From Caldisericota bacterium (GTDB lineage: Bacteria > Caldisericota > Caldisericia > JAAYUI01): a stretch of 64,000 nucleotides of DNA. Shown one piece after another: positions 4,826 through 46,356 of the stretch; within the stretch, counting starts at the first letter, position 1; every line of letters begins with the position of its first letter. Under the pieces are notes generated by a model that ran no database searches, had not been told where the DNA came from, and saw only the letters and a list, made by a program, of their open reading frames with translations. A program made the position numbers and the translations under genes. The stretch covers positions 26,046 to 90,045 of the forward strand of contig JAKPMO010000005.1 in assembly GCA_029548865.1 (NCBI GenBank). The letters are read 5' to 3'.

Positions 4826-5686
4826 ATGGAGATAAAAAAAGTTGGTGTCATAGGCGCAGGTGTAATGGGAAACGGGATTGCCCATGTATTTGCACAGACC
4901 GGATACGACGTTGTTCTTGCAGAAGCAAACATCCAGCTTGCTGAAAAAGGCAAGGCAACTATCCAGAAAAACCTCGGCAGGATGGTCCAGAAAGGCACAA
5001 TCACACAGGAAGTCGCAGATGCAACGCTTGCGAGAATAAAAACCACCGAAAACCTTGAAGACCTCAGGGATTGTCAGATCGTTGTCGAGGCTGTCACTGA
5101 AAACAGGCAGGTCAAAAACCAGATATACGACAAATTGAATGGCATCCTGCAGGGAAACGCAATTCTGGCCTCAAACACTTCCACAATTTCAATCACCGAG
5201 CTGGCCGCAAAATACAAGAACCCAGGGAAATTTATCGGCATGCACTTCATGAACCCAGTTCCCCTCATGAAACTTGTTGAAGTGATAAGGGGAATGCTCA
5301 CGACCGATGAGACCTACAATATTGTGAATGATCTTTCAATCAAACTGGGAAAGACACCGGCAGTTGCAAATGATTATCCAGGATTTGTCAGCAACAGGAT
5401 ACTGATGCCAATGATAAACGAGGCAGTCTACTGCCTCATGGAGGGCGTTGCCGACAAGGAATCAATAGACACTGTAATGAAACTAGGCATGAACCATCCA
5501 ATGGGCCCCCTCGCACTCGCAGACCTTATCGGCCTTGATACCTGCCTGGCAATTATGGAAGTACTCCATGAAGGGCTTGGCGACTCAAAATACAGGCCGT
5601 GCCCACTGCTGAGAAAAATGGTTGCAGCAGGTCTCCTTGGAAGGAAATCGGGAAAAGGTTTCTACGACTACACCGAACAAAAATAA
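4826..5686 (+). CDS. hbd: 3-hydroxybutyryl-CoA dehydrogenase
   Basis: [19 protein letters not shown] Rossmann start with GGAGG 5 nt upstream. The track's longer form from 4757 overlaps the thiolase. The sequence is 3-hydroxyacyl-CoA dehydrogenase-like throughout. Confidence 0.9.
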
Positions 5687-5730
5687 TCAACCACAGAAAC
5701 TGACACACTAGATCAAGTTTCAACGCCAAC

Positions 5731-5766
5731 AAAAAAGCCCCGCTTTTTTTAAAGCGGGGCTTTTTT
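5731..5766. terminator. bidirectional rho-independent terminator
   Basis: AAAAAA GCCCCGC-loop-GCGGGGC TTTTTT, between convergent hbd and the large surface-protein gene. Confidence 0.75.
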
Positions 5767-5799
5767 AATTCATCAGCGATGACAGGGGGAATTGTTTGC

Positions 5800-8700
5800 T
5801 TACTTTACCCTTATCTTTTTGGTATAAGTGCAAGAATTGGCATAACGGTCAGTAGTTCTGAGGGTTATGCTGTAGCTACCTGGGGAATAGGTGTAGCTGA
5901 ATTCTTTTGTGGTGTCATTTTCGATATTGAAGGTTTTGTCAATCTTTCCATCACCCTCGAAATCAAGATCAGCTGTGTATGGGCCACATCCACCAAATGG
6001 GCTCACTTTGATGGTCATTGTGCCAGAGGCAGGTATGACATAAATGTTGTCATTGTCAGGTTTTGCTTCTGGAATCAAGATTGAAATGTCGGGACACTCA
6101 CAAACCACTGGTTCCTTTGCACCAACTCTGAGCACTATGACTGCAGTATCCTGGTCTCTTAAACCCTCTGCGGAGGTGACAATAGCAGTGTTTATGATAT
6201 TGATGCCAGGGTTAAGGCTTATGTCCTTTCTGACTCTCAATGTCAGTTCAATTATCTTGACTTCACCAGGATTCATGATTCCAAATGACCAGACAATTTT
6301 CTGCATGCCAAGTGACCCTGAAGGTATTGAGGCTACATATTCAAGTTCTCTTGGCAAGATATCAACCACAACAACATTGGTTGCTTCCCTGGTACCAATA
6401 TTTTTTACAATTATTGTGTAGCTAACTTTTTCACCCTGCTGGGCCATGAACTTCTTTGTTGTCTTCGTGAGCGTAATGAGCGGTTCGCCAAGAACATCAA
6501 CGGTGCACTGTGCGAATTCTGGGTTTGGTGCGGTATCGGCATACGTCAGAACGTTGTTGGTGAGTTTGGTGCCTTTGGCCAAGTGACCAACTCTTACTCT
6601 CACAACAAGAACAAATGTCTCGTGCGGTGCAAGACTTCCGTTTCCAGCCAAACCAACAGAAGTGGTCCATCTGTTGTTGTCAACATCTGGCGGCGGGTTG
6701 GCATCGTAGAAGGTTACTCCCTTTGGATAGTTCTCGACGATATTGACGTTTGTCTGTGTGTATGGGGTGTCGTTTGTGACTGTTATTGTGTAAATCAGAA
6801 GACTGTCCGGAAGAACTGGGTCTGGGACGCATTTCTTTGTTATCTGGAGTGATGGCACAACCGGGACCTGGAGAATGAAGCCATGCATGTGGCCCCTCTC
6901 ATCAGAACGTGGGTAATATGGGTTTGGCCAAGGTCCACCGGCTGGCGAACCAGCACAGAAATTATAATTGTTCTCTGTTGTGGGGTCACAATCAGTATAA
7001 TCATTACCCCATTCTGTCGCCACACAAGGCCCCTGACCATCATCCAGCGAATTGGGATCAGATCCACCAGTGTTGGCGCAAACCAGATATGGCCTGAGCA
7101 GGACTGATGAATCTTCACCGGCAAGGTACGTTCTTGTTGGCCTGTGAAGTGCTTTTGTGTCGTAGTCCTGGTTTACATAGTCCCACCATTGGTCAGCTTT
7201 CCAGTGGATGGCTGTCTTTGCGGCAACAACCGTGAAATTGCGGTGCCAGAACCATGAGCAGCTGTACTGCTTTGCATTAGAAGCATATCTTGGATTCATT
7301 GCTTTCGGGCTCCACAGATAGCCAGCCGGGAAGCCTGGTGGCAATGTTGGAGGGGTTTCTGGGTTAGCATTCGACCCTATCCAGCCATTTGCCCACCATG
7401 CGCCGCCCTGGCCTGCTGTTGGGTCGGCCGGTTGCGGATTGAGCCAGAAACGGTCTGTTGGAATCCTGTTGGTGCCACATGCCCAGTAATCCCACTCTGC
7501 CCTATACCATCCAAGTTGTGAGCCACAGGTTCCATTATCAGCCGAGTTTCCAATTATTCCAACATAAGCACCTGCATTTGCGCCATCAACAGGCCATGTG
7601 GAAGGATCCGGCGGTGTCCTGAAACCGGAGAACATGGTTTGCGAATTTTGCCTGTCATTGTTACAAAGTGTCAAAGCACCGTCTGCAATCATTATCTGGG
7701 AGAGTGGAAGAGTGGAATTTTCAAAAATCATTACTATTTCAAAACCGTATAATTGACCATTTCCAGGCTCATATTCTTGAACCAGATTTGTAACATGAAT
7801 TATATCGTAAGGATCAGCGATATATGGTGTAATATTGAAACGGAATGTTGACTGCATCTGGCCCCAGCCCAAGCATCCACAACTTGGCCTGTAGCCACTG
7901 TCGTTGTTTCTTCCAAGGAATGAACCGGTACAAAGAAGAGATTGCGGATTGCCTTCTCTCCCCGGATTTACAAGTATTGGTATATGCTCTCGGACTTCAT
8001 CACCAGAATCTCGGCGTTGATCAAAAATTGGTTGGCCAAGCCAGCTACCATCAGGATCTTCAATTACCCTTCCAACTGAGTTGGCATACAGATAGCACGC
8101 AACAAGCCTGGAGTTGTCCGGTATGTAGTCCGGGCGATATTTCAGACGTGTTATTCCAGCAGCCCCAGGGGACGAATCATGGACAAACTGACAAAAATAG
8201 TTTTTACGAATTTGTCCTTCCCCATCACGTGGATGTCCAAAATCGGTTGACTGGGCAATCATTGCGAATCCATATTTTCCAACGAATGGCGGGATGTCCT
8301 GATTGAGTCTGTTGAATGATGTTGTGAACTGGTGAACATAGTAGAACCTTCCAGTGTTCACATAATCATATTCCGGATACGGTGCACCAGCGCCAAAATA
8401 CTGGTAGCCAAGAACCACGCCATCAGTGAAAACGCCTTGCGTTGCTGTTGGCATATTGTTGAATGATGCATCTCCACCAAAACCAGCAAGCGGGGTAAAC
8501 GGGGAGTTGTCATAAGAGAAAGCTATTCTGTCTCCACCGTTTGTTCCTCCACCAATCATAACACCGCTATGAATAGAGGGGCCAATCTGCTCACGGCTTG
8601 CAAAATAAGCTGTGATATTTGCTGTTACAGGTGGGATATTGGCAGAAGAGGCATCAAAATTTATTTGATAGCCGCCTGTTGGAAGGGGCTGGATTGGACC

Positions 8701-9735
8701 CGCTCCATCAGGATCAAATCTGAAATAGAGAGCGGCCGGATATGCTGCTCCACTGCTAAAAGCAGCAAGTCTTCCATCAGCACCGAACGTAAGTGTCGGG
8801 TTTGGTGCAATATTACAAGCAGTCCAGCCTGTTGGTGCACCATTGTAAGCATCATGGAAACCAACCCTTGTTGTGACATCCTGGCCAATTGTTAAGCCAC
8901 CCTGGCCATGCATGGAAAATGCTGTTATAGTCGCTGTTCCAGCAAGAGGTGTTTCAAAACCACCGGAGAGGGTCTGGTAGAAAATTGGGCCAAAATCAAG
9001 TCCAAAATTAAAACTTGCTCCAGCGTAGTTAAAGAGATGGGACCCGATATCACAAATCCCTGTTCTATCATCACCAGCCATATAAGGAATTCCACCATCA
9101 GGTGTGACTGGGCCATTTGGAACATACAGTTTACCACCAGTTGAGGTACCAATACCCAATATGTTCTGGGCACCATACCATGTTGTTATGTAATCCTTAT
9201 TTTCGACATTACTATTGGCTTTGTCAGCGTAGAGAACATCCGAAATAATCTGGTTCAATACAGGAATTTCACCTCTGATTCCTGGGTATCCTGGTGGATA
9301 TGTAAGGTAGCGATCATAATATTCTGAGTTGAAATCTACAAAGAATGTGCCAGAGCCATAAGTAGCCGTCTGACCATCATTGATGATTCCAGGTGTTGTT
9401 TCTCTCCATATCTTATACCAGGCTGAAGCGGCCATCTGATATCTTGTTGGGGCAAGAACCAACATACGCTCGCCAGGAGTGCTTGTGTAGAAGAATCCTC
9501 CACCTGGTTGTAGGGCTGTCTGGTTGCAGTTTTCATAAAGAGGAAGCGTTACGGGGGTTCCCCAGCTGAGGTTTGGCCTGTTTGGAGGAGTGTATCCATT
9601 GCGTTGGCACCACAGTCTCCTTGCAAGGATTGATTGCATCTCTGTCATTCCTTCAACCCATGCGTGGAAGTAAAGGTTGAGATTGTCATAGTAGGCATGG
9701 ACCATTTCATGTGTCAGTGCATCAAGCCTTGCTTC
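5800..9735 (-). CDS. C-terminal ~1,311 codons of a HEXXH zincin-like surface protein (two DUF11-like repeats plus a PKD-like domain), downstream of an in-frame TAA
   Basis: It is in the same frame as ORF 9736..10446. Translation after the TAA begins EARLDALTHEMVHAYYDNLNLYFHAWVEG (HEXXH plus a downstream Glu). The tail has LQITKKCVPD..YTITVTN and LTKTTKK..YTIIVKN repeats and a PKD-like end. There is no signal peptide of its own, and the first Met (9705) lies inside HEXXH. Confidence 0.7.
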   Translation of the reverse strand, partial: EARLDALTHEMVHAYYDNLNLYFHAWVEGMTEMQSILARRLWCQRNGYTPPNRPNLSWGTPVTLPLYENCNQTALQPGGGFFYTSTPGERMLVLAPTRYQMAASAWYKIWRETTPGIINDGQTATYGSGTFFVDFNSEYYDRYLTYPPGYPGIRGEIPVLNQIISDVLYADKANSNVENKDYITTWYGAQNILGIGTSTGGKLYVPNGPVTPDGGIPYMAGDDRTGICDIGSHLFNYAGASFNFGLDFGPIFYQTLSGGFETPLAGTATITAFSMHGQGGLTIGQDVTTRVGFHDAYNGAPTGWTACNIAPNPTLTFGADGRLAAFSSGAAYPAALYFRFDPDGAGPIQPLPTGGYQINFDASSANIPPVTANITAYFASREQIGPSIHSGVMIGGGTNGGDRIAFSYDNSPFTPLAGFGGDASFNNMPTATQGVFTDGVVLGYQYFGAGAPYPEYDYVNTGRFYYVHQFTTSFNRLNQDIPPFVGKYGFAMIAQSTDFGHPRDGEGQIRKNYFCQFVHDSSPGAAGITRLKYRPDYIPDNSRLVACYLYANSVGRVIEDPDGSWLGQPIFDQRRDSGDEVREHIPILVNPGREGNPQSLLCTGSFLGRNNDSGYRPSCGCLGWGQMQSTFRFNITPYIADPYDIIHVTNLVQEYEPGNGQLYGFEIVMIFENSTLPLSQIMIADGALTLCNNDRQNSQTMFSGFRTPPDPSTWPVDGANAGAYVGIIGNSADNGTCGSQLGWYRAEWDYWACGTNRIPTDRFWLNPQPADPTAGQGGAWWANGWIGSNANPETPPTLPPGFPAGYLWSPKAMNPRYASNAKQYSCSWFWHRNFTVVAAKTAIHWKADQWWDYVNQDYDTKALHRPTRTYLAGEDSSVLLRPYLVCANTGGSDPNSLDDGQGPCVATEWGNDYTDCDPTTENNYNFCAGSPAGGPWPNPYYPRSDERGHMHGFILQVPVVPSLQITKKCVPDPVLPDSLLIYTITVTNDTPYTQTNVNIVENYPKGVTFYDANPPPDVDNNRWTTSVGLAGNGSLAPHETFVLVVRVRVGHLAKGTKLTNNVLTYADTAPNPEFAQCTVDVLGEPLITLTKTTKKFMAQQGEKVSYTIIVKNIGTREATNVVVVDILPRELEYVASIPSGSLGMQKIVWSFGIMNPGEVKIIELTLRVRKDISLNPGINIINTAIVTSAEGLRDQDTAVIVLRVGAKEPVVCECPDISILIPEAKPDNDNIYVIPASGTMTIKVSPFGGCGPYTADLDFEGDGKIDKTFNIENDTTKEFSYTYSPGSYSITLRTTDRYANSCTYTKKIRVK

Positions 9736-11107: not shown

Positions 11108-11290
11108 ATGAAACCAACAGTCGACAAAGAGACTTGCATCGGTTGCGGAGTTTGCGCCTCAGTTTGCCCGGACGTTTTTGAAATTGGAAGTGATGGCCTT
11201 GCAGGCGTTATCAGTGGCTCGGATTGCGGTGGTTGCGGTTGCTGCGAAGAAGCTGCCGAGAACTGCCCAGTTGCTGCTATTAAACTCTGA
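11108..11290 (+). CDS. small 4Fe-4S ferredoxin (60 aa)
   Basis: CIGCGVCASVCP (CxxCxxCxxxCP) plus a second block CGGCGCCEEAAENCP (CxxCxxCx6CP). Strong SD and its own terminator. Confidence 0.85.
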   Translation: MKPTVDKETCIGCGVCASVCPDVFEIGSDGLAGVISGSDCGGCGCCEEAAENCPVAAIKL

Positions 11291-11302: not shown

Positions 11303-11333
11303 AAAAAGCGGCCCTCTAAGGGGCCGCTTTTTT
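11303..11333. terminator. bidirectional rho-independent terminator
   Basis: AAAAA GCGGCCC-loop-GGGCCGC TTTTTT, between convergent fdx and the CYTH gene. Confidence 0.7.
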
Positions 11334-11352: not shown

Positions 11353-12063
11353 CTAAAGAAGCTCTATTCCCCTGCTCATTTTTGAAACCGACGAGAAACG
11401 CGAATCTATACCCGTGATGTCTCGCACCCCAACATTTATCACTTCCATTATTTTTGTAGCCATGTCAAAAAGTTCGTTCGAGTAATAATCGATTTCAACT
11501 TGTGTAAACACTTCGTTTGGTCTTGCTTTGTATGTCACCCTATCAATTTTTATTTTGACCTGGTCATTGGGCTGGTCGCTGTAAGAAATAGGATATATAC
11601 ACCTTTCACACTTCAACCTGATAATCTCTGAAAGCCCCATTGATTCAAGGTGTTCCACCACGCCTATGGCCTCCGGACTCGGTGGGCAAAGCTTTTCAGG
11701 ATGATCCCTGAGAAGTTCGGCAATTATTTCATTTGTTTTCAAGACTGATATTTCATTATCATATATCTCGGCTGGTTTCCCATAGCTTGCCTCGTTGAGT
11801 TTCCTGTAGGCTATGAATTCCGCTTCCCTTGATTTTTGTGGCCACACTGATTTTCTGACTCTTATGTAGGCATCCTGGCTGTGCAAGAGAAACAATCCGG
11901 AGGGCTGAAGCTGGTCAAAATACCTGTCATAATTGATCATGTCTATTCTTGCCCTGACCGGCCATTTATATTTTTCGATAAGCTCAGAGATAAGAGTGGA
12001 AATCTTCGGCGAGGCATCGGCATTAATATCAAGCTTAAGCTCTCTTTCATTGGTTGGATTCAT
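11353..12063 (-). CDS. CYTH-domain protein (triphosphate tunnel metalloenzyme family), copy 1
   Basis: N-terminal ExExK signature NERELKLDI and a C-terminal acidic strand TQVEIDYY. Its ATG overlaps the stop of the upstream paralogue (ATGA). Confidence 0.6.
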   Translation of the reverse strand: MNPTNERELKLDINADASPKISTLISELIEKYKWPVRARIDMINYDRYFDQLQPSGLFLLHSQDAYIRVRKSVWPQKSREAEFIAYRKLNEASYGKPAEIYDNEISVLKTNEIIAELLRDHPEKLCPPSPEAIGVVEHLESMGLSEIIRLKCERCIYPISYSDQPNDQVKIKIDRVTYKARPNEVFTQVEIDYYSNELFDMATKIMEVINVGVRDITGIDSRFSSVSKMSRGIELL

Positions 12064-12710
12064 TGTTCTCCTCCGTTATTAAGGCCCAAAAGGAATTTGC
12101 TTTTTTGCGATGGCCCCAGGGTTGGATTTTTGTTTTTGACAAACTTTTTCTCGATGGCTTGTCTAAGAGTATCAAGAAAAGCCGGGCCTTCCACTTCTAT
12201 TTCAGAAAATACGTTGCTGGTTTTTGGAAAAACATAAGTATATGTATCAAAAGCTATTTGGCCACAACCTTTACTGCAGCATATTTCTCTGGTTTTTCTC
12301 CCCTTGGTCAAAACAACAACGGGCAAAAGCTTCTCCGGCTCAGAGAGCAATTTTAGCGTAGTCTCGTCTGCTGGGTCCTGGAAGATTGATTTCAATTTCT
12401 TGGTCACTTTGCCCATAAGGTCTTTGTAGGTGTTGGACTCCTCCTCAATCCTTATATGGTTTTTTTCATCAAAAGTCTCAAGGGTTTTTAGGGTTATTTT
12501 TTTCAAAATGCCACCCTCATAACGGTTTCTCAATGAATATCCAGAGTTTTTCAAAACAAAATCGCAGTCAAGGTAGACGTCAAGCTGATCTACAAACCTG
12601 ATGTCACCCAGGCTAAATCCAAGTTCAACGGAAATCTTTTCAATGGCCTCTTCGACGGCTTTTTTGTTCTTTAAAACCATATACTTTGATTCGTTTTCGA
12701 ATTGGACCAT
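12060..12710 (-). CDS. CYTH-domain protein, copy 2
   Basis: MVQFENESKY (ExExK) lies the same distance from the start as in copy 1, and SEIEVEG lies near the C-terminus. The track start, TTG 12743, lies inside the predicted -35 box, so ATG 12710 is preferred. Confidence 0.55.
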   Translation of the reverse strand: MVQFENESKYMVLKNKKAVEEAIEKISVELGFSLGDIRFVDQLDVYLDCDFVLKNSGYSLRNRYEGGILKKITLKTLETFDEKNHIRIEEESNTYKDLMGKVTKKLKSIFQDPADETTLKLLSEPEKLLPVVVLTKGRKTREICCSKGCGQIAFDTYTYVFPKTSNVFSEIEVEGPAFLDTLRQAIEKKFVKNKNPTLGPSQKSKFLLGLNNGGEQ

Positions 12711-12720
12711 TTTTAATGGT

Positions 12721-12748
12721 AATATAATGCCGCTTTCAGCCAAGTCAA
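12721..12748 (-). promoter_or_regulatory. putative promoter TTGACT-16-TATATT, 10 nt before ATG 12710 (no SD)
   Basis: The minus strand reads TTGACTTGGCTGAAAGCGGCATTATATT ACCATTAAAA ATG. Confidence 0.4.
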
Positions 12749-12759
12749 CGACTGATGCC

Positions 12760-12787
12760 TTGATTTGACAGTGATCACAACTAAAAT
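12760..12787 (+). promoter_or_regulatory. putative promoter TTGATT-16-TAAAAT, 8 nt before GTG 12796 (no SD)
   Basis: TTGATTTGACAGTGATCACAACTAAAAT GACCGTTT GTG. It sits back-to-back with the CYTH promoter. Confidence 0.4.
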
Positions 12788-12795
12788 GACCGTTT

Positions 12796-13812
12796 GTGAA
12801 TCCAGATTTTGATTACATATCCAAGGGGCTAGCGGGCGTAGAAGAAAACCTGTCAAAAGCCGCTTTATATCCAATAGGGCAAGCATTAGAGCTTGCTATT
12901 TCTCTTATTCCACTGGGACTGCCATCGGATTCACGCTTCTGGCTTGAAAAGCTCGCCCAGATGTCAAGAAATAGCCAAAGTTCCGGCAAAAGATTCAGGG
13001 CAAAACTGGCTCTTGCATCTTCCCAGGCCATAGGTCTTCCCGTAGACATGGCAATCAACCTTGGCGCTTTCGTAGAAATGATACAGTCCGCAAGCCTCAT
13101 ACACGACGACGTTGTGGACGAGGCATCATTAAGAAGAAATGAACCAACCGTAAACAGCCTCATGGGCAACCGTTTTGCGGTGCTTACCGGCGATTATGTT
13201 CTTTCTTTAGCTTTGACAAAATTGGGTGAACTAAAAAACCACAATCTGACAATGCGCTTTTCCGAGGTCGTATCACAAATGACGTTCGGTGAGGCAATGG
13301 AAATAGAAATAACGTTTGACCATACAAGAACAATCGCACATTATCTCACCACAATATCGCTCAAAACTGCTTCACTCCTGTCATTCTGCTGTCAAAGCGC
13401 CTGCCTGATCGCAAACGTTGATGAGAAAACAATAAACAGCCTTACAGAATTTGGTGCAAATCTCGGAATGGCCTTTCAGCTAATAGACGACACGCTTGAT
13501 TTTGTGGGCCCTGACGGGAAAGAAAAATGCCAGGATTTTAAGGAAGGCCTTTTAACCCTACCCATTTTATTGTTGGACATACAGGGAAACCCGTTTGATA
13601 AAAGCATTGACGAAATACAGGTTCTGATAGCAGAGAAAAACACTCTTACACAAACAATTGACAAGGCCAGGGAATATTCCGTAAAAGCAATAGACTGTCT
13701 GGATGGAATAAGGAGCCTGATCCCAGAACACTGCTTGCAAACATTTACCAACATAAATACAAGTATTTATGAAAGACTTCCCAATAATCTCAACCCATTT
13801 CCAAGGAGATAA
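12796..13812 (+). CDS. trans-polyprenyl diphosphate synthase (IspB/HepT-like)
   Basis: First Asp-rich motif LIHDDVVDE and second LIDDTLDF. 338 aa with a GTG start. Confidence 0.85.
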   Translation: MNPDFDYISKGLAGVEENLSKAALYPIGQALELAISLIPLGLPSDSRFWLEKLAQMSRNSQSSGKRFRAKLALASSQAIGLPVDMAINLGAFVEMIQSASLIHDDVVDEASLRRNEPTVNSLMGNRFAVLTGDYVLSLALTKLGELKNHNLTMRFSEVVSQMTFGEAMEIEITFDHTRTIAHYLTTISLKTASLLSFCCQSACLIANVDEKTINSLTEFGANLGMAFQLIDDTLDFVGPDGKEKCQDFKEGLLTLPILLLDIQGNPFDKSIDEIQVLIAEKNTLTQTIDKAREYSVKAIDCLDGIRSLIPEHCLQTFTNINTSIYERLPNNLNPFPRR

Positions 13813-13814
13813 AT

Positions 13815-14423
13815 ATGAGCGTAGACGAAATGATCCAGAAAACATGGAACAATAGCAACGGGCTCGACATCAATGTCGGTGTAAGCTCAAGACATATTCA
13901 TCTGCATGAGGACCATGTCAAAATACTCTTTGGTCATGATCTGACATGCTACAAGGACCTCACTCAGCCAGGGCAATACGCATGCAACGAAAAAGTTGAC
14001 CTGGTCGGACCTAAGGGAACCATCAAGGGAGTCAGGGTGTTAGGCCCAACTAGAAGGGCAACACAGGTTGAGGTTTCAAAAACCGACTCTATAATACTTG
14101 GTCTGGATGTACCACTCAGAATGTCAGATGACATAGAAGGGACTCCCGGAATAAAGCTGGTTGGAGAAAAAGGTGAAATTGTCCTGGACAAAGGAGTCAT
14201 CGTTGCAAAAAGACATATCCACATGTCACCCGAGGACGCTGAAAAAGCTGGCGTCACCAATGGTGAAATGGTCTGGGTTTCTGCCAATACACCAAGAAAA
14301 TTGGTAATGGGTGACATCGTGATAAGGGTTTCAAAAACCTTTGCACTCGATTTTCATATTGACACAGATGAGGCAAATGCAGCCTGGCTCAAAAGTGGAG
14401 ACAAAATCAGGATAGTGAGGTAA
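13815..14423 (+). CDS. pduL: PduL-type phosphate acyltransferase
   Basis: Duplicated PduL signature: GVSSRHIHLHEDHV and VAKRHIHMSPEDAEKAG. 202 aa with an AAGGAG SD. Confidence 0.85.
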   Translation: MSVDEMIQKTWNNSNGLDINVGVSSRHIHLHEDHVKILFGHDLTCYKDLTQPGQYACNEKVDLVGPKGTIKGVRVLGPTRRATQVEVSKTDSIILGLDVPLRMSDDIEGTPGIKLVGEKGEIVLDKGVIVAKRHIHMSPEDAEKAGVTNGEMVWVSANTPRKLVMGDIVIRVSKTFALDFHIDTDEANAAWLKSGDKIRIVR

Positions 14424-14426
14424 CTC

Positions 14427-15629
14427 ATGACAAAAGAAAAAATAGAAAACATACAACAAAGCACCGATACTTTTTCCATACAATACGAAAAAAACCAGAT
14501 TGACAACAAGGGTGTACGCTTTTCAACAATGTTGCTTGCGGCAAAATATGCTGCTATGGGACTCCTTATACTTCTGACCTACATCACCGGTTTCGCAAGA
14601 TACATAGGCGACTGGGCGATTGCACTTGGCGGAAGTGCCGACAATTTTGTAATATGGTTTGGTTTCGGTTTCGCTTACTCCATTTGCCTTTCGGTACTCG
14701 TTTTCCCAATTGACTGGTACAGGGAAGCAGTCGTGCAAGTAAAATCCGGTGTCCATGGAATGCCATGGGTAAATACGCTGGGAAGAATCCTTCGCAGAGA
14801 TTTCTTCGATGCCCTGCTTTGGGGTGGATTGAATTATTACTTCCTCGTTATGTATTTCTCACTCTCCACAACTGGAAGACAGGGTCCCATGGGTGGCAAC
14901 ACCCCACAATGGTGGATAATTTCAGCTCTCTGGGGTATGCTTTTTGTCCCGGCATTGTTCATAATAATCAATCTTCTCAAATTGATTACTGACAACTCAG
15001 TAAAACAGGTTCCAACAGGTCCTGACAGAAGGATAATAAAAGAGCTTGGAAGGAAATTTAGGGTAACCGTCCTCGATGTTTTCTACTACAACCTTGGCGG
15101 CGATTTTAATGCTGAAACCAAGCTTGTTGGTCTCTTTGGCGTATACTTCGTTTTCGCTCCAGCAAAGCTCAAAGGCAAAGATGTCATAATTGCGTCCGTT
15201 GCAAAAGCAATGGCAAGGGCAGACGTATTGAAAGGCACAGTCATTAACATTGTAAGATGGGTCTTCTTCGTAGCTGGTTCTTACTTGATATATCTCGCTT
15301 TCAACTGGGTCTATGTAAATAATGTCTTCTCCTGGTTCTCTGAACAGGCAGGAACCGGTGATCCAGCAGTTGGAATCATAGTAATGTTTATTATTGGCGC
15401 CCTCTATCTCATTGCCACTCCGCTCATAAATCTCATATCAAAACGTATGGACATCGGGGCCGACAAGCTCGCGTCAAGGGCAATTGGCAGACCAGAAGTT
15501 TATTCGAACTATCTCAAGATGGTGGACACTGGAAAAGCAATCTCCAGCGAAACAGACAACATGACAAAAATGTGTTTGATGGACACATACGATTCTGAAG
15601 AAATCGAGAGGCGCTTGGCCACTAAATGA
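14427..15629 (+). CDS. polytopic membrane protein resembling M48/Ste24 peptidases but lacking HEXXH
   Basis: 400 aa. FPIDWYREAVVQVKSG, VTVLDVFYYNLGGDFNAETK, ..VIIASVAKAMARADVLKG (where HELGH would be) and ADKLASRAIGRPEVYSNYLKMV follow the M48 block order as I remember it. There is no His-Glu-x-x-His anywhere. Confidence 0.4.
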   Translation: MTKEKIENIQQSTDTFSIQYEKNQIDNKGVRFSTMLLAAKYAAMGLLILLTYITGFARYIGDWAIALGGSADNFVIWFGFGFAYSICLSVLVFPIDWYREAVVQVKSGVHGMPWVNTLGRILRRDFFDALLWGGLNYYFLVMYFSLSTTGRQGPMGGNTPQWWIISALWGMLFVPALFIIINLLKLITDNSVKQVPTGPDRRIIKELGRKFRVTVLDVFYYNLGGDFNAETKLVGLFGVYFVFAPAKLKGKDVIIASVAKAMARADVLKGTVINIVRWVFFVAGSYLIYLAFNWVYVNNVFSWFSEQAGTGDPAVGIIVMFIIGALYLIATPLINLISKRMDIGADKLASRAIGRPEVYSNYLKMVDTGKAISSETDNMTKMCLMDTYDSEEIERRLATK

Positions 15630-16153
15630 ACATAGGCATCATAAGGATTTCAACGAAGGCTGACAGGTACCGCCTAAAGCAGACAATTGAGTCAATTGGC
15701 GTTCAGGTGGTACAGACGATTGATAGCGCAAGCATGCCCCCAACAATTGTTTTTGTTGGCACAGAAGACCAGATGCTCATGGCTTTCAAGCAGGCTGAGA
15801 ATCTTGGGGCCGAATACGCAAAAGTGTTGACACACATAAGGGAAGTGTCGCCCAAGTTGGTAAAAACCCTAAAAGAAGGCCCAAAATTCAAACCGGGGCA
15901 ACCATTCGGAATTCTTGAAACTGCCGGCCCAGAAGCAATCTTGGCTTGTGCAAATCTCGCAGCAATGTTTGACGGTATCGAACTGGCAGAAATTCAGCTG
16001 GCAAGCATGCCAAACGAGAAATCGCTCATGGTCATAACGGGTGATAAGAAATTGATTGAAAATGTTCTTGAGAGTGCAGAAATGATCTGCGAAAAAGCGC
16101 ATTTTACAGTCCCAGGAAGTAAGCCCTGGCAAAACGACGGAAGGCAAAACTGA
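15626..16153 (+). CDS. tandem BMC-domain-like protein (PduT/BMC-T-like), tentative
   Basis: 175 aa in two ~85-aa halves. IGIIRIS..GVQVVQ..TIVFVGTEDQMLMAFKQAENLG..VLTHIREVSP and FGILETAGPEAILACANLAA..IELAEI..SLMVITGDKKLIENVLESAE match the BMC pattern G-[IL]-[IV]-E-T..A.DA..K.A.V.L....v.V.GDv.aV..Av..g. ATGA overlap with the upstream gene. Confidence 0.45.
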   Translation: MNIGIIRISTKADRYRLKQTIESIGVQVVQTIDSASMPPTIVFVGTEDQMLMAFKQAENLGAEYAKVLTHIREVSPKLVKTLKEGPKFKPGQPFGILETAGPEAILACANLAAMFDGIELAEIQLASMPNEKSLMVITGDKKLIENVLESAEMICEKAHFTVPGSKPWQNDGRQN

Positions 16154-16638
16154 AAAATATTTTTACTCCATGGAGAATGGATTTCATCAAATCCAAGAAA
16201 CCCGAACACTGTGTTTTCTGCAAGGCAGGCACAAACATAGGTGGCGAAGATAAAGATTTCATCGTCTATCGTGGAGAAAAATGTTTTGTAATACTCAATC
16301 GCTACCCCTACGCAACAGGCCACATCATGATCATTCCATACAGGCACTGTCAAAAGTTTGAAGATCTGGGCAATGAAGAGCTTTCAGAAATGATGATCTT
16401 GGCAAAAAAATTTGTTTCAGTTCTAAAACGTGCATTCACCCCCGATGGATTCAACATGGGAATGAATCTTGGTGCTGCCGCAGGCGCTGGTATTGCTGAC
16501 CATATCCACTTGCATATAGTGCCAAGGTGGATCGGGGACACAAATTTCATGCCCATTTTTGCCGAAGTTAAAATCCACCCCACTGATTTGGAAGGGGTTT
16601 ACAAAGCAATCTTGCAAGCCCTTGAAGCTACCGCCTGA
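16150..16638 (+). CDS. HIT-family nucleotide hydrolase/phosphorylase (probable CTG start; first ATG is 16177)
   Basis: Histidine triad HIHLHIVPRW and NRYPYATGHIMIIPYRH. The conserved N-terminal block NIFTPWRMDFI lies in frame upstream of ATG 16177. CTG 16150 overlaps the upstream TGA (CTGA) and has GGAAGG 5 nt upstream. Confidence 0.75.
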   Translation: MKNIFTPWRMDFIKSKKPEHCVFCKAGTNIGGEDKDFIVYRGEKCFVILNRYPYATGHIMIIPYRHCQKFEDLGNEELSEMMILAKKFVSVLKRAFTPDGFNMGMNLGAAAGAGIADHIHLHIVPRWIGDTNFMPIFAEVKIHPTDLEGVYKAILQALEATA

Positions 16639-16903
16639 AACTTATCGCAAGCCCAAACACAACAAGGGCATAACCAGTTATTCTCACAAGAACAAGCGCA
16701 ACGCTCAGAATGCTGTTTTCGACTACTGGATATCCAAAAATATTCTCTCCAAATCTCACGGCGTGAGACAGTGCAAAACATAAAAAGGCAATACTTATAA
16801 TAAGAAAAGCCCTTGCGCCATGTTTTTTATATGCCACTATGCCAAGGGAAACGATCGTGAGGCTGAATATGAGGTTTACTAAGCTCTCAATCCATTGCGG
16901 CAT
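16628..16903 (-). CDS. small 3-TM membrane protein, unknown function
   Basis: 91 aa and hydrophobic. AAAGGAGA lies about 10 nt upstream, inside the end of the DUF4388 gene, so it is co-transcribed with the DUF4388 pair. Confidence 0.6.
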   Translation of the reverse strand: MPQWIESLVNLIFSLTIVSLGIVAYKKHGARAFLIISIAFLCFALSHAVRFGENIFGYPVVENSILSVALVLVRITGYALVVFGLAISFRR

Positions 16904-16909
16904 GAATAT

Positions 16910-17950
16910 TCAATCTCCTTTCCGGCACGGAACACATGAGATGGTGTCACCATCCTTGAGATCAAGTTTGTTTGCGTCTATTTGGGCAATTACGACCTTC
17001 TCGTCAAGGTTTCTCATCTTGATAACACTAAATACAGGTTTGTAATAAATATTTTTGAATTCTACCGAGTCAATTTTTTGTCCCCTTAGTCTCGCATTCC
17101 ACATATCATACAGATATTCATCAACAAAAACCTGGCCATGCCTAGTATTGCCAACGCTTATTACCAGTTCTTTTTGGTGCGCGATTTTCTGGATACCCAG
17201 GGTGTCATAAAATCTGGACATATCAATAACTTTTGAGTATTCGTCGATAACTGAAATTGCATTCTTGAGGCAAAGGATGCACATCATATCAGCAAAATCA
17301 TCAATTGATAGCGACATGGACTCAAATAAGTCAACAAGCCTGGTGCCAATTGTTATTTTTGAAAGTATCTCAGATTCATTTATACCAAGTTTGGTTTTGG
17401 TAACCCTAGGAACCAGGAAGATGTCTTTTTTGATTTCTGCTTTTTTAATGGCTATCATACCCTCGTCAAGCATTTCATTCACAAGTTTTTTGGTTTCTTC
17501 CTCTGAAAATGAGAGTGATGAAACAAGATTCGAATATGTAATCCCACTCCCAATGAGTCCCGTGATCAGCCATTTATCGGGATTGATGGCTATTTGACCG
17601 CCTTCCTTGAGTGGATTTCTTACAAGCACTGTGCTTTGACAAATCCTGTTTTGAAGATTTATATAAACTGACGCGGCCTTTAAAAGGCTTTCAGTGAGAG
17701 TTTTTATGTTGGTTTCAATGGCATAGCCCTGCTCGAAAGTGAACTTAAGTAAGTCTAGCTTTATTATCTCATAGAATGCCTGCTCGGCTATTTTTTCCTG
17801 CCATTTTGCAAAAGTTATTTCTCCAGATCTGACCTGAACAGAACCTGATCCGGAAGCATTTGACACTGTTATTGTTCCAGTCTGGTTTTGTGAGAGAAGG
17901 AATTTAAATAAATCCAGCAAACCAGTGCCATTTATTTCGCCAGATAGCAT
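16910..17950 (-). CDS. DUF4388 (PATAN-like) domain protein, paralogue 1
   Basis: N-terminal GEINGTGLLDLFKFLLSQNQTGTITV..GSVQVRSGEITFAKW..EQAFYEIIKL..FTFEQG is the DUF4388 pattern. The middle has wHTH-like segments (LVNEMLDEGMIAIK). A conserved C-terminal beta domain is shared with 18008..19039. Confidence 0.7.
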   Translation of the reverse strand: MLSGEINGTGLLDLFKFLLSQNQTGTITVSNASGSGSVQVRSGEITFAKWQEKIAEQAFYEIIKLDLLKFTFEQGYAIETNIKTLTESLLKAASVYINLQNRICQSTVLVRNPLKEGGQIAINPDKWLITGLIGSGITYSNLVSSLSFSEEETKKLVNEMLDEGMIAIKKAEIKKDIFLVPRVTKTKLGINESEILSKITIGTRLVDLFESMSLSIDDFADMMCILCLKNAISVIDEYSKVIDMSRFYDTLGIQKIAHQKELVISVGNTRHGQVFVDEYLYDMWNARLRGQKIDSVEFKNIYYKPVFSVIKMRNLDEKVVIAQIDANKLDLKDGDTISCVPCRKGD

Positions 17951-18007
17951 GCCAATAAGGTATCATAACGGAAATTATTGTCAATTTCTCAATATTTTTA
18001 TAATTTT

Positions 18008-19039
18008 TTAATATTTTGGATAAATATTTACGAATGATCCTTCCAGAACATCGAGCAGTTTTTGATCATTTGGTCTGATGAAAAAAGAATCTCTTGGCAT
18101 CTTTCCCTTTTCCACAAGAAAACTGACTTTGCCATTTGGGCAAACTATTTCAACAGAATCAATTTTTTTGCCAAAAAGCTGGCTTTCCCACATCCCAATT
18201 ACAAACTCATCAATAGCCAATGTGTTAGGTCTGACACAAAGTGAGTTGTCTATTCTAAGCTTCAGCAAAATTGGTCTGGCAACTTTTTCAAATCCAAGCG
18301 ATTTATAAATATACCACGGTGGCATTATCTTCCCGTTGTCATCAGACATGACAACCATTTTTTTGAGAACGAGCGAAACAAGTATGTCTGCAATGGATAC
18401 AGTTTGGTTCTCATATTGCGCTAGAAATTCACCCAGTGTCATCCCATGTGCTATTGAATTAAAAACTTGCTTTTCTCTCTCAGACAGGTCTATTGGGCTC
18501 TCTTTTGGAAACAAGAAAAGTGCATCCACCATAAATTTTGGCTTTATGAAAACTAAACCTTCTTCAACCATCGAGGAGAGTGTTTCCTGAAGGCATGGCA
18601 AGGAGAGTTTTGTTGAAATGGCCAACTGGGCAACGCTAAGTGGGGTGAGTAAAGAATTCAAAATGTTTTCTTTTTGGATGGACAATGAAACATTAGGCAA
18701 AACTCTCTCGGTTTTTTGCACAATTGTTCTTGGAAGGAAACGTTCATCAGGAGAAAGTTTGTTTATTTTTGATAAATATTTGAATGGTATGGGTTTTTCG
18801 CAGTGCTGCTTGTTGAGTCTAGTAAAATTGAATCTCAGCGATCCAATTTTTGATAACGCCATGATCGCATCTTTGCCAGTTAGATCGCCAAATTTGGCCA
18901 TGGCAATATTGCCTTTATCCACAACAATATCGCCACTGCATGAATCTGTTTCAAAAATAATGGTCCCCGAATGGCCCTGGTTCAAAAAAAATGCAAGAAG
19001 ATCATACAACTCTCCCCCGACAATCTCGCCTGAGTGCAT
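18008..19039 (-). CDS. DUF4388 (PATAN-like) domain protein, paralogue 2
   Basis: GEIVGGELYDLLAFFLNQGHSGTIIF..GDIVVDKGNIAMAKF..GKDAIMALSKI..FNFTR, with the same architecture as paralogue 1. Confidence 0.7.
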   Translation of the reverse strand: MHSGEIVGGELYDLLAFFLNQGHSGTIIFETDSCSGDIVVDKGNIAMAKFGDLTGKDAIMALSKIGSLRFNFTRLNKQHCEKPIPFKYLSKINKLSPDERFLPRTIVQKTERVLPNVSLSIQKENILNSLLTPLSVAQLAISTKLSLPCLQETLSSMVEEGLVFIKPKFMVDALFLFPKESPIDLSEREKQVFNSIAHGMTLGEFLAQYENQTVSIADILVSLVLKKMVVMSDDNGKIMPPWYIYKSLGFEKVARPILLKLRIDNSLCVRPNTLAIDEFVIGMWESQLFGKKIDSVEIVCPNGKVSFLVEKGKMPRDSFFIRPNDQKLLDVLEGSFVNIYPKY

Positions 19040-19231: not shown

Positions 19232-20335
19232 ATGAAAGCTGTTCAGAAAACTGAACCAAAAATAGGAGCTAAACTTGTTGAGGTGCCAACCCCAACCAAT
19301 CTCAAACCAGGATGGACCCTCGTCAAAGTTAGGGCAACATCCATTTGTGGAACAGATATCCATATCTGGAACTGGGACCAATGGTCACAGGGGAGAATAG
19401 GCGAAAAAGCTCTGCCACAGATACTCGGACATGAATTCTGCGGAGAGGTGGTCGAGTTGGGACCAAACTGCAACAGGATAAAAGTTGGCGATTACGTATC
19501 AGCAGAAACACATATATATGATCCAGGAGACCTTACCTCAATGCTCGGGATCTTCCACGTTGGTAACAACATGAAGATTTTGGGTGTTGATACTGACGGT
19601 TGTTTTGCAGATTATGTTGCAATCCCAGAAATAGTTCTCTGGAAAAACGATAAAACCATGCCACCAGAATACGCATCTATTCAGGAACCCCTTGGCAATG
19701 CCTGCTATGCTGTAATGGGCGAGGACAATGACGTTTATGGCAAAACAATGCTCATAACTGGGGATGGCCCAATATCGCTATTCGCAATCGGCGTCGCAAA
19801 AGCTGCCGGTGCGTCAAAAATTATCCAGTTTGGGATGGCACAATACAGCATGGAGATTGGGCGCAAGATGGGCGTCGATATACAGATCGATGTCACAAAA
19901 ACCACCCCTGATGAAAGATACAAGATAGTTATGGATAACACCGGAGGATGGGGTTGCGACATTGTTTGCGAGATGATAGGCGCCCAGAGCTCTCTTGATG
20001 ACGCTTTCCGCTGCATCAGAAAAGGCGGAAGGTTCTCGGCATTCGGCATACCTTCAAAATCACCATCACAGATAGACTACACCGATCAGATCGTCTTTAA
20101 GGGCATCCAGATACATGGCATCTCCGGAAGAAAGATTTTTGACACCTGGTACCGCAATGGAAACATGCTGGCAAACCGCAAGCTTGACCCAACACCGGTT
20201 GTGACCCATCTAATGGCACTTGAGGATTATCAAAAAGCGTTTGAAATGCTTACAGCACCAACAAGGCAGTGTGCAAAAATTGTCATGTTCCCCGACAAAC
20301 AGGAATTGAATGCGGCCCTGGCCCGCAGAAAATAA
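19232..20335 (+). CDS. tdh: L-threonine 3-dehydrogenase (Zn-dependent)
   Basis: [33 protein letters not shown] closely follows the Tdh N-terminal pattern. It is followed by kbl. AAGGAGGA SD. Confidence 0.88.
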
Positions 20336-20346
20336 GGAGGAAACAA

Positions 20347-21597
20347 ATGGCATACGGAAAGATAAAAGATTTTTTGACAAACGAGCTCAAGGGGATAAGG
20401 GATGCCGGGTTATATAAAGAAGAGCGCATCATAGTGACTCCCCAGGCCGCAGACATCAAGGTCCAGTTTCCAGAGAACGCACCAGTCAAAGAAGCACTCA
20501 ATTTCTGCGCAAACAACTACCTTGGACTCTCCTCGCATCCAGATGTTCTAAAAGCAGCAAAAGAAGGCCTGGAAATGAGAGGCTATGGCCTTTCCTCGGT
20601 ACGCTTCATCTGCGGAACACAGGACATCCACAAGAAACTGGAGAGGAAACTCTCGGAATTTCTTGGAGTCGAAGATTCGATACTCTATTCATCATGTTTT
20701 GATGCAAATGGTGGTCTCTTTGAGGCTATCATGAAAGAAGACGACGCCATTATCACAGAGGAACTCAACCATGCTTCGATAATTGATGGCGTCAGGCTCT
20801 CAAAGGCAAAAAGGTACGTCTTCAAACACTCCGACATGAATGACCTCGAGGCAAAATGCAAGGAGGCCAGGGGCGCTGGTGCAAGACACATGATAATTGC
20901 CACCGATGGCGTCTTCTCCATGGATGGCGATATTGCCAACCTGAAGGGTATCTGTGATGTTGCAGACAAATATGATGCCCTCGTCATGGTTGATGATTCC
21001 CATGCAACCGGCTTCATTGGAAAAACAGGCAGGGGGACCCATGAGCACAATGGCGTTATGGGAAGGATTGATGTAATAACAACCACCCTCGGCAAAGCGC
21101 TTGGTGGTGCATCCGGTGGAGCAACCTGTGGAAGAAAGGAAATTATTGAAATCCTCCGCCAGAGATCAAGACCATACCTGTTCTCAAACACCATTCCACC
21201 AGTCGTTGCCAGCGCAGCCCTCAGGGTCATGGACATACTCTCGTCGACAACCGAGCGCAGGGACAAGCTCGAAAGAAATACCATGTATTTCAGGGAAAAA
21301 ATGACATCTGCCGGTTTTGACATAAAACCAGGTGTTCACCCAATTGTTCCAATCATGCTCTACAATGCAAAGCTCAGCCAGGACATGGCAAAAGACCTCT
21401 ATGAAAAGGGTATATACGTCATAGGGTTCTACTACCCTGTCGTGGCCAAGGGACAGGCAAGAATAAGGGTCCAGATTTCAGCAGGACACGAAATGGGGCA
21501 CCTTGACAAGGCGATAAAGGCCTTCACAGAGGTTGGAGAAAAATACGGCATCCTCCACAAAAACAAAGACCAGATAATCGAAAAATACGGGTTGTAA
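20347..21597 (+). CDS. kbl: 2-amino-3-ketobutyrate CoA ligase (glycine C-acetyltransferase)
   Basis: Start ATG 20347 after AAGGAGG; the track form from 20269 overlaps tdh. The sequence is alpha-oxoamine synthase-like, with DDSHATGF and the PLP Lys in [10 protein letters not shown]. Confidence 0.9.
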
Positions 21598-31556: not shown

Positions 31557-31660
31557 AACAAGACTCTAGTAATACCTCAAGAAAACATTTAGCCACAATA
31601 AATGTTCAGCTTGACAACAAATCAATAGTAAATTAACTTATCTGTTTGCGGAGGTGCGCA

Positions 31661-46094: not shown

Positions 46095-46171
46095 TGGTCG
46101 GGACGGCCAGATTCGAACTGGCGACCTCTTGGTCCCGAACCAAGCGCTCTACCAAACTGAGCCACGTCCCG
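46095..46171 (-). tRNA. tRNA-Pro (anticodon CGG), CCA encoded
   Basis: Hand-folded cloverleaf: CGGGACG/CGTCCCG acceptor, GCTC/GAGC D stem, CTTGG-TTCGGGA-CCAAG anticodon arm, GCCAG-TTCGAAT-CTGGC T arm, A73, CCA. Confidence 0.9.
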
Positions 46172-46330
46172 ACAAATTTAGCATTTTACTGATTATTTGG
46201 TCTTTGTAAAGAGAATTTTTTAATCTTTATATATTGTAATTCTATGACACAATATAGTGCTGGTTTTGCACATTTTTGCCAAAAAACCCTCATTTTGTCT
46301 ATAAACCACACTGACGGCAGCCCAGAAAAT

Positions 46331-46351: not shown

Positions 46352-46356
46352 AAATA

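Follow-up and report, generated by a model that had tools for sequence, protein, structure and literature searches.

A Caldisericia operon that unites a Ste24-fold pseudo-protease, a degenerate PduT-type protein and a PduL-type phosphotransacylase

Ste24 enzymes act on farnesylated substrates. ZMPSTE24/Ste24p (PDB 4aw6, 4il3) are M48A CAAX prenyl proteases. PduT (PDB 3n79 and 3pac; relative 3nwg), the single-layer tandem BMC-T shell protein of the propanediol-utilisation microcompartment, carries two non-permuted BMC domains in a single chain of ~180 aa, with a pore-position Cys that binds a 4Fe-4S cluster. PduL is a phosphotransacylase of metabolosomes whose N-terminal extensions are reported in BMC-associated homologues only (PMC4784909); outside BMCs, it serves elsewhere as an ordinary phosphotransacetylase (PMC3812714). 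Satellite loci—small sets of one shell-type protein and enzymes located away from the main BMC locus—are also known (Sutter et al. 2021, PMC8217296).

We describe an operon that resembles each of these systems in part, located on the + strand of the window (the whole 64-kb stretch of Caldisericota DNA analysed here, which belongs to a Caldisericales MAG). Three of its products look, from their sequences, like working enzymes: a long-chain polyprenyl diphosphate synthase, a PduL transacylase and an Ap4A-phosphorylase-type HIT enzyme. The other two are stripped-down versions of known folds: a Ste24-type membrane chamber protein that lacks zinc ligands and a PduT-type BMC protein that has lost the Fe-S cysteine and the shell-tiling edge lysines.

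Operon architecture and the three enzymes

The five-gene set is a real operon. An ORF check recovered all five + strand ORFs of the initial annotation, spanning 12796–16638, at unchanged coordinates (12796–13812, 13815–14423, 14427–15629, 15626–16153 and 16150 or 16177–16638). Their tight packing was likewise confirmed: The first two junctions are gaps of 2 and 3 nt, and the last two are overlaps, at ATGA and then at CTGA (+2, +3, −4 and −4 nt). In a metatranscriptome-labelled run, one contig spans 13269–17214 unbroken; the contigs of this run are unstranded and of low depth, and they also extend into the convergent genes.

The first gene (12796–13812, +, GTG start) encodes a 338-aa IspB/HepT-like long-chain trans-polyprenyl diphosphate synthase (PF00348, 8.5e-57). 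Its top NCBIfam models are solanesyl and heptaprenyl diphosphate synthases, all scoring under the equivalog cut-offs. Both DDxxD motifs are present (residues 104 and 231), the first of them preceded by small residues, A at −5 and S at −4 (SASLIHDDVVD).

The second gene (13815–14423, +), preceded by an AAGGAG Shine-Dalgarno sequence, encodes a 202-aa PduL-type phosphotransacylase (PF06130, 4e-74). Like metabolosome PduL, it exceeds curated family cut-offs (NF011652, 258 bits versus 209) and carries both RHxH motifs, here RHIH at residues 26 and 133. It shares with BMC-associated PduLs an N-terminal extension (PMC4784909), which is 19 aa long and conserved in Caldisericia PduLs, with D4 and I7 invariant; this short segment is modestly amphipathic, not clearly above shuffles, 3–22% of which reach the same value. 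Its genome region, like that of the stand-alone PduL of SR1, lacks shell genes (PMC3812714). Unlike known PduL genes, it is flanked by polyprenyl synthase and pseudo-protease genes, and the operon contains no acylating aldehyde dehydrogenase, signature enzyme or acetate kinase.

The last gene (16150–16638, +) encodes a HIT enzyme of the ATP adenylyltransferase/Ap4A phosphorylase branch (PF01230, 2e-20; 162 aa from CTG 16150) that carries HIHLHIVPRW and matches NF052622 at 4.9e-42, yet under that model's cut-off. A start at CTG 16150 is supported because the first ATG comes only after the codons for LKxIFxPWRM, a conserved motif of the N terminus, relatives start at TTG or GTG in four cases and at CTG in three, and GGAAGG stands 5 nt upstream of the codon.

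Two stripped-down proteins

The third gene (14427–15629, +) encodes a 400-aa polytopic membrane protein of the Ste24/ZMPSTE24 fold. The protein has no Pfam match; aligned by hhalign to true M48 peptidases, its family scores a probability of 98.6% (E 5.5e-16, 338 columns). Over those columns it is collinear with bacterial M48 proteins that carry Peptidase_M48_N, both in the helix bundle of the N terminus and in the strand region beside the active site. Its AF2 model (pLDDT 72) matches ZMPSTE24/Ste24p full-length, and these are the sole Foldseek matches (TM 0.63–0.69, E 2e-8). What sets it apart from both groups is the former active site: HExxH aligns with K260-A-x-x-R264, the third zinc ligand E is D, the C-terminal His is also replaced and the only His left in the protein is H110. 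In place of the substrate-binding strand region beside this site, the family has gained GD...E.K, a polar motif that is both new and invariant; D312, N335 and D386 are among the other residues that never vary. One sublineage carries an insertion of ~125 aa with extra helices.

The fourth gene (15626–16153, +), whose start overlaps the preceding stop (ATGA), encodes a 175-aa degenerate tandem BMC-domain protein. The profile match to PduT is collinear at 16–19% identity (E 2e-7 against PDB PduT and 3nwg; hhalign probability 92% to a PduT), and the AF2 model (pLDDT 81) superposes on PduT-family chains at a Foldseek TM of ~0.8, with an rmsd of 2.1 Å to 3nwg. Six of eight family members match PF00936, at best with E 2e-6, and the window's copy does not, so Pfam-based surveys would probably miss this family. 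Profiles, AlphaFold models and Foldseek together uphold all five protein assignments of the initial annotation, and profile searches, which could have overturned the two unusual ones, instead place the His-less protein with Ste24 and the tandem protein with PduT.

The BMC-like family differs from PduT in every member at PduT Cys38, the pore position, and at both edge lysines, which are E/S in domain 1 and M/L/E/H in domain 2; the C-terminal PRPH strand or tail is missing or disordered. Its gene also differs in its surroundings: It stands directly 3' of a membrane protein gene and has no BMC-H or BMC-P companions. The absence of such genes from the operon, pointed out initially, extends to the 64-kb window and to the related loci L001–L008, and Pfam and NCBIfam scans of 50 of the larger window ORFs gave no BMC-H or BMC-P match and otherwise housekeeping genes. 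To our knowledge, known BMC loci do not have a membrane protein gene directly before the shell-type gene, with start and stop codons that overlap or almost touch. Caldiserica has no entry in the supplementary files of the 2021 BMC catalogue (PMC8217296). The suggestion that the operon is compartment-linked is unlikely, given the lost edge lysines, PRPH tail and cluster cysteine and the lack of a Caldiserica locus in that catalogue.

Conservation and neighbourhood in Caldisericia

As far as searches reach, the operon is confined to the class Caldisericia. The five genes occur in the same order, with gaps of ≤23 nt, in eight other lineages, while their flanks vary; this recurrence speaks against chance adjacency. 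Those of the eight lineages with named records are Caldisericia MAGs, and genome matches are all to Caldisericales or Caldisericia MAGs. The Ste24-like and BMC-like families are restricted to this lineage and very rare: A set of 1.84 billion proteins contains about 15 representatives, 4 of which are true M48 peptidases. Their members evolve fastest of the five. Their genes are always adjacent, with start and stop codons overlapping or 2–4 nt apart in every lineage sampled. Both degenerate proteins are intact ORFs in all these lineages, down to 19–31% identity, which implies that they are under selection. The lineages compared are only moderately diverged (Kbl is 75–86% identical), so shared descent, and not selection, may account for some of the synteny.

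Upstream, a divergent promoter region (12711–12795) separates the operon from a minus-strand CYTH gene; its initially reported length of 85 bp holds if that gene starts at ATG 12710 (MVQFENESK). The best + strand promoter-like site, TTGATT-16-TAAAAT (12760–12787), ends 8 nt before GTG 12796, and no Shine-Dalgarno sequence was found before this codon; both fit the leaderless start proposed initially. The promoter scan as a whole shows no enrichment over shuffles, with 16 sites versus 10.9 ± 3.6. A − strand site, TTGACT-16-TATATT, lies at 12748–12721. In contigs of the metatranscriptome-labelled run X4, 12704–12813 is uncovered and both sides are covered, which at this low depth is only suggestive.

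The CYTH (triphosphate tunnel) protein at 12060–12710 (−; PF01928, 3.3e-7, 30.7 bits versus a cut-off of 23.2; ExExK at residue 5) adjoins the operon in every locus extending that far. Of the two CYTH paralogues originally named, only this one passes Pfam. Its neighbour (11353–12063, −; 236 aa, overlapping the CYTH gene by 4 nt) is possibly a second CYTH-like protein: It has ExExK at residue 6 and a collinear but weak match to the first (hhalign E 9e-4, probability 23%), is 53–67% identical among lineages and matches nothing in Pfam or PDB, its relatives likewise lacking a Pfam match. In locus L020, a 955-aa gene sits between the CYTH pair and the operon, and a single phosphoryl-chemistry pathway served by all five genes and the CYTH pair is at most conjectural. 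Elsewhere, L014 has the giant DUF11 gene in inverted orientation, and a 91-aa gene varies among lineages.

Downstream and convergent with the operon are two PatA_N/DUF4388 paralogues (16910–19039, −; PF14332, 1.7e-8 for 16910–17950), of which one PatA_N-type gene recurs at the same place in all relatives. A tdh-kbl pair, converting threonine to glycine and acetyl-CoA (19232–21597, +; TIGR00692, 2e-107; TIGR01822, 650 bits versus a cut-off of 493), follows in every locus extending that far, at 67–86% identity. This pair, 2.6 kb downstream of the operon, yields the PduL substrate acetyl-CoA, a plainer link that the initial annotation overlooked.

Alternative readings of the operon

We tentatively favour, as the leading candidate though with less than even confidence, a lineage-specific membrane module rather than a microcompartment: The pseudo-Ste24 and a shell-derived trimer would be co-expressed with PduL and would perhaps hold it. 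Such a module leaves the genes for the polyprenyl synthase, HIT and CYTH proteins without a role, which counts against it.

A rather doubtful alternative is that the genes are co-transcribed and functionally unrelated: a row of housekeeping genes that this lineage has simply passed on by descent, and in which the pseudo-Ste24 and BMC-like protein have separate or only residual roles. The synteny that reaches the PatA_N gene, tdh and kbl in only moderately diverged lineages speaks for this, as does the plausibility of a stand-alone housekeeping role for each of the three enzymes; no known pathway unites them, and our literature search found no paper containing both "BMC domain" and "Ste24." This alternative sits less well with five genes that stay closely spaced while their flanks are rearranged, and with a degenerate pair that is intact and near-touching in every lineage sampled and was never seen apart.

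It is unlikely that the operon serves isoprenoid handling, in which the pseudo-Ste24 would keep a lipid-accommodating membrane chamber without catalysis and serve as receptor or exit chamber for the synthase's very hydrophobic long-chain polyprenyl diphosphate, with the BMC-like protein as a cytoplasmic cap and the HIT and CYTH enzymes handling by-products (nucleotide, diphosphate or triphosphate). In all lineages the synthase gene opens the operon, and its motifs fit a long-chain product; the Ste24 fold is retained full-length, GD...E.K adjoins the former active site, further residues are invariant and Ste24 enzymes act on farnesylated substrates. PduL, however, has no tie to isoprenoid chemistry, and since the organism has cytochrome c maturation genes, quinone synthesis would in any case be expected to call for a long-chain synthase.

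A genuine microcompartment, with this operon as a satellite locus, the BMC-T-like protein as a minor shell tile, PduL as an encapsulated core enzyme and BMC-H, BMC-P and a signature enzyme elsewhere in the genome, is highly improbable: Satellite precedents (PMC8217296), the PduL extension and an aldehyde dehydrogenase 8 kb from the operon (24799–26277) speak for it, but the closest models to the latter are those of ordinary dehydrogenases for semialdehydes and betaine aldehyde, the phylum has no known main locus in the 2021 catalogue, no shell gene lies in the 64-kb window or in loci L001–L008, the tiling residues and pore cysteine are lost throughout the family and the adjoining membrane protein gene is atypical of known BMC loci.

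In the membrane module that we favour, the pseudo-Ste24 would join the BMC-derived protein, which is probably trimeric, in a non-catalytic assembly at the cytoplasmic membrane face. The simplest origin for pduL and the BMC-T-like gene would be an ancestral metabolosome that has since lost its shell. The short conserved N-terminal segment of PduL sits where encapsulation peptides do; PduL would be co-expressed with the module and may dock on it. The genes for the synthase and the HIT enzyme, and the divergent CYTH gene or genes, would be co-regulated. PduL would convert acetyl- or acyl-CoA to acyl-phosphate for ATP formation, with the neighbouring tdh-kbl pair as one source of acetyl-CoA.

Operon Architecture and Transcription

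The operon comprises five plus-strand genes with the following predicted products: a polyprenyl diphosphate synthase (gene 1, 12796–13812, GTG start), PduL (gene 2, 13815–14423), a 400-aa pseudo-Ste24 protein (gene 3, 14427–15629), a 175-aa BMC-like protein (gene 4, 15626–16153), and a HIT enzyme (gene 5, 16150–16638, CTG start). An ORF check placed all five where the initial annotation had read them; its reading of the sequence was accurate. Genes 2 and 3 are preceded by clear Shine–Dalgarno sequences. Genes 1 and 2 are 2 nt apart and genes 2 and 3 are 3 nt apart; the next two junctions are overlaps, ATGA and then CTGA, the last of which depends on CTG 16150 as the HIT start. CTG is a rare start codon in bacteria. 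The motif LKxIFxPWRM, encoded upstream of the first HIT ATG (16177), is conserved at the protein level in all relatives; the counterpart of the start codon is TTG in the related loci L004, L007, and L008, GTG in L017, and CTG in L002, L014, and the window; and GGAAGG lies 5 nt upstream of CTG 16150. These features support CTG 16150–16152, overlapping the upstream stop, as what appears to be the HIT start. In two other lineages, an ATG has arisen four codons further upstream.

Gene 1 has no Shine–Dalgarno sequence, and a TAAAAT hexamer precedes its GTG by 8 nt, which fits the leaderless promoter proposed earlier; a promoter scan overall gave no enrichment over shuffles. The 85-bp intergenic region shared with a divergent CYTH gene also agrees with the earlier reading, if that gene starts at ATG 12710.

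Contigs of two sequencing runs are compared here: X1, which is DNA-like, and X4, labelled metatranscriptomic. One X4 contig spans 13269–17214 unbroken, and the stretch that X4 leaves bare coincides with the divergent promoter region (12704–12813), which X1 bridges. X4 also has a gap within gene 1, and its long contig continues into the convergent genes; X4 depth is low (5–9×) and the contigs are unstranded and assembled. This coverage fits a single operon transcript with divergent promoters; because the RNA support consists of unstranded contigs only, co-transcription is supported, short of proof.

Conservation and Genomic Context

A genome scan assigned the window to a Caldisericales MAG (96% match) and returned three more Caldisericales or Caldisericia MAGs. 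With a five-sequence alignment, the genome scan gave four loci and a metagenome scan five; every named record belongs to Caldisericia, and the metagenomes come from sludge or digesters. Word-based protein searches found only a handful of family members. Within the reach of these searches, the pseudo-Ste24 and BMC-like families are both rare and restricted to Caldisericia.

Combined with assembly look-ups, the scans place the same five genes in the same order, with gaps of at most 23 nt, in eight other lineages. The combination singled out in the initial annotation thus recurs on neighborhood comparison, and chance adjacency is rejected by this shared order amid rearranged flanks. Compared with the window, and with its 81% relative L006 set aside, protein identity is 75–86% for Kbl, 67–74% for Tdh, 56–78% for PduL, 53–63% for HIT, 44–52% for the polyprenyl synthase, 31–52% for pseudo-Ste24, and from below 28% to 53% for the BMC-like protein. 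The genes for the last two form the fastest-evolving pair and are never found apart, with start and stop codons that overlap or lie 2–4 nt apart in every lineage. The pair is kept under selection as inseparable genes next to PduL.

The surroundings are more fluid. In locus L020, the polyprenyl synthase gene and the CYTH pair are parted by a 955-aa gene (5316–8183) whose product has the N-terminal domain of copper amine oxidases, so the CYTH genes can stand apart from the operon. Several lineages encode, on the upstream side of the block, a giant DUF11/CLIPPER-repeat protein of 1086–1578 aa (window 5800–9705, minus strand; L004 1708–6444; L014 1062–4322), in flipped orientation in L014. On the other side, the gene for a 91-aa hydrophobic protein with a weak DUF5985 match (16628–16903, minus strand) converges on the HIT gene, the 3′ ends overlapping by 11 nt; only some lineages have it, and L017 carries a META-domain gene in its place. 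The window encodes three PatA_N/DUF4388 proteins (16910–17950, 18008–19039, and 31646–32599), the first two being tandem paralogues convergent with the operon where relatives have one. Since the flanks vary while the five genes stay, the operon has been kept together as its surroundings changed. Beyond the convergent PatA_N gene, tdh-kbl (19232–21597) is present in every lineage whose sequence extends to this point; the probable kbl start is ATG 20347, which gives the 416 aa seen in relatives, rather than GTG 20269 of the ORF list.

Just upstream of the CYTH pair, a plus-strand gene (11108–11290) encodes a 60-aa 4Fe-4S ferredoxin, conserved in L002 and L017; a strong terminator-like hairpin (11303–11332) comes after it. 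Elsewhere in the window are two tRNA-Pro genes (46095–46434, minus strand; anticodons CGG and GGG, 186 nt between), two adjoining cyclophilin-type peptidyl-prolyl isomerase genes (41624–42941, plus strand), whose listed ORFs overlap and whose second start is uncertain, and three minus-strand genes (26970–30252) for an HdrD/GlcF-like iron-sulfur protein, a GlcD-like FAD oxidase, and a 2-phosphosulfolactate phosphatase (ComB-like).

Identity of the Operon and CYTH Proteins

The pseudo-Ste24 protein has no Pfam match, and an exhaustive search of 1.84 billion representative proteins returned only 15, four of them true M48 peptidases with a Peptidase_M48_N domain. Profile–profile alignment of the family with these peptidases (hhalign; probability 98.6%, E 5.5e-16, 338 columns) sets K260-A-M-A-R264 at the HExxH position and the third zinc ligand Glu against D341, which is variable within the family; the C-terminal His of M48 aligns to Asp, and a single His, at 110, occurs in the whole protein. 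The AlphaFold model (pLDDT 72) matches only ZMPSTE24/Ste24p in the PDB (Foldseek, E ≤ 0.001; TM 0.63–0.69), and Foldseek and hhalign both point to the Ste24 membrane-chamber fold with its N-terminal helix bundle. Taken together, the M48 profile link, the alignment of HExxH to KAMAR, the single His, and the model match identify the gene 3 product as a predicted Ste24-fold pseudo-protease, which differs from M48 (Ste24 type) peptidases in the absence of HExxH and the third-ligand Glu. To our knowledge, Ste24-type proteins are known as zinc proteases only.

Descent from a catalytically active M48 gene with comparable neighbors was considered and rejected, as the nearest true M48 relatives (P0027 and P0017) have unrelated contexts. 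Within the family, L004 (10001–11587) and L017 (10001–11563) represent one sublineage of 520–528-aa forms, in which a hydrophobic insertion of ~125 aa adds helices behind helix four or five; the relative P0016, at 356 aa, belongs to the same inserted type and ends just past the insertion.

Searched alone, the window's BMC-like protein gives only weak PduT matches and none to PF00936 even at E ≤ 1; six of eight family members match PF00936 weakly (best 2e-6). Because the window copy escapes this model, BMC surveys based on PF00936 probably miss the family. The family profile matches PduT and 3nwg at E 2e-7, with an hhalign probability of 92% against a PduT. Superposition of the AF2 model (pLDDT 81) on PduT-family chains gives a TM of about 0.8 (up to 0.82), and its top 29 Foldseek matches are either tandem BMC-T proteins or designs derived from such proteins; model and family profile agree on a tandem pair of BMC-domain folds. 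For this protein as for pseudo-Ste24, the earlier assignments—tandem BMC-like and His-less M48/Ste24-like, respectively—hold, the alternative of a wrong assignment being ruled out by profile and fold evidence.

Unlike PduT-type BMC-T proteins, the BMC-like family lacks the edge lysines, PRPH, and the 4Fe-4S pore cysteine. In all members, the edge Lys is replaced by E or S in domain 1 and by M, L, E, or H in domain 2; the PRPH edge motif/tail is absent from every member aligned with PduT; the PduT C38 position is S or A; and the two Cys of the window protein, 108 and 155, occupy other positions and lack conservation. The edge lysines and PRPH motif serve tiling with neighboring hexamers; a pore cysteine binding a 4Fe-4S cluster is specific to PduT. 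We know of BMC-domain proteins only as tiles of protein-shelled organelles.

The remaining three proteins retain their family motifs. Gene 1 matches PF00348 at 8.5e-57, with DDxxD motifs at 104 (DDVVD) and 231 (DDTLD) and small residues before the first, the pattern of long-chain enzymes; it is, by sequence, a trans-polyprenyl diphosphate synthase. The best product-length models (solanesyl- and heptaprenyl-PP synthases) give 153–165 bits against cut-offs of 383–457. A family 2 encapsulin cargo prenyltransferase was rejected (NF041169, 143 bits against a cut-off of 450; no encapsulin gene present). Gene 2 is annotated as a PduL phosphotransacylase on PF06130 (248.6 bits, cut-off 25) and NF011652 (258, cut-off 209), with RHIH motifs at 26 and 133 that are invariant in relatives. 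Its 19-aa N-terminal extension is kept among relatives and is modestly amphipathic (hydrophobic moment 0.5–0.7, a value reached by 3–22% of shuffles). Gene 5 matches PF01230 at 2e-20 and has the HxHxHxx motif as HIHLHIV; it is a predicted HIT enzyme nearest the ATP adenylyltransferase/Ap4A phosphorylase branch, scoring 143 bits against a cut-off of 290 for the ATP adenylyltransferase equivalog NF052622.

Beside the operon, the initial annotation had placed two divergent CYTH paralogues on the minus strand. The assignment stands for 12060–12710, which exceeds the Pfam threshold (PF01928, 30.7 bits against 23.2) and has ExExK at residue 5. For 11353–12063, it reduces to ExExK and a weak CYTH link (hhalign against its neighbor, E 9e-4, probability 23%), with a Pfam match in none of four relatives. 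A search for solved-structure matches to either CYTH-like family found none.

Possible Functions and Significance

Our tentative reading, which we rate somewhat short of an even chance, is that pseudo-Ste24 and a putative trimer of the BMC-derived protein would form a noncatalytic membrane module, the remnant of a lost metabolosome, and that PduL, co-expressed with this module and perhaps docked on it, would turn acyl-CoA into acyl-phosphate. The tdh-kbl pathway converts threonine to glycine and acetyl-CoA, and acetyl-CoA is a substrate of PduL; we offer this as a plainer link to PduL.

Among the alternatives, the genes may be functionally unrelated and merely co-transcribed. The lineages are only moderately diverged, so synteny alone is no strong proof of shared function; with the operon kept through changing surroundings, we regard this as possible but rather improbable. 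A predicted Ste24-type chamber encoded with a polyprenyl synthase might instead handle the isoprenoid product of gene 1, a reading we consider unlikely. We consider equally unlikely a shell protein reused outside any microcompartment as the cytoplasmic partner of the dead Ste24-type chamber, the two forming a membrane-anchored platform or small lattice that would hold PduL and possibly the polyprenyl synthase.

Within the window and loci L001–L008, the evidence speaks against a microcompartment. The initial annotation had noted no BMC-H or BMC-P gene with the operon, and tblastn with PduA, CcmK2, and EutN-like queries extends this to the whole window and L001–L008; Pfam and NCBIfam searches of 50 of the larger window ORFs found housekeeping genes and no shell genes. 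Further points against are the lost tiling residues, a nearby aldehyde dehydrogenase that resembles ordinary semialdehyde dehydrogenases, and the absence of Caldiserica from the supplements to the 2021 BMC catalogue (PMC8217296). We rate a true microcompartment with distant shell genes as highly improbable. Organisms that lack BMCs are known to use PduL as an ordinary phosphotransacetylase (PMC3812714); on the other side, N-terminal PduL extensions have been reported only in BMC-associated homologues (PMC4784909), and the Caldisericia PduLs carry one. An anti-phage defense system was rejected after a PADLOC scan yielded a generic HIT match only.

Literature searches found no link between Caldiserica and BMCs or PduL, nor "BMC domain" and "Ste24" together. 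The combination is best filed as real, conserved, and undescribed in the literature searched, built from known folds rather than representing a new kind of system. It comes from a small, uncultured lineage, and both degenerate families lack their defining residues in a phylum without a catalogued microcompartment. The platform, if real, would be a Caldisericia-specific enzyme scaffold attached to the membrane, of a kind not described before. If the pseudo-Ste24/BMC-like pair forms a complex, it would show a fate of shell proteins after organelle loss and supply a bacterial example of a pseudo-protease that acts as a scaffold.
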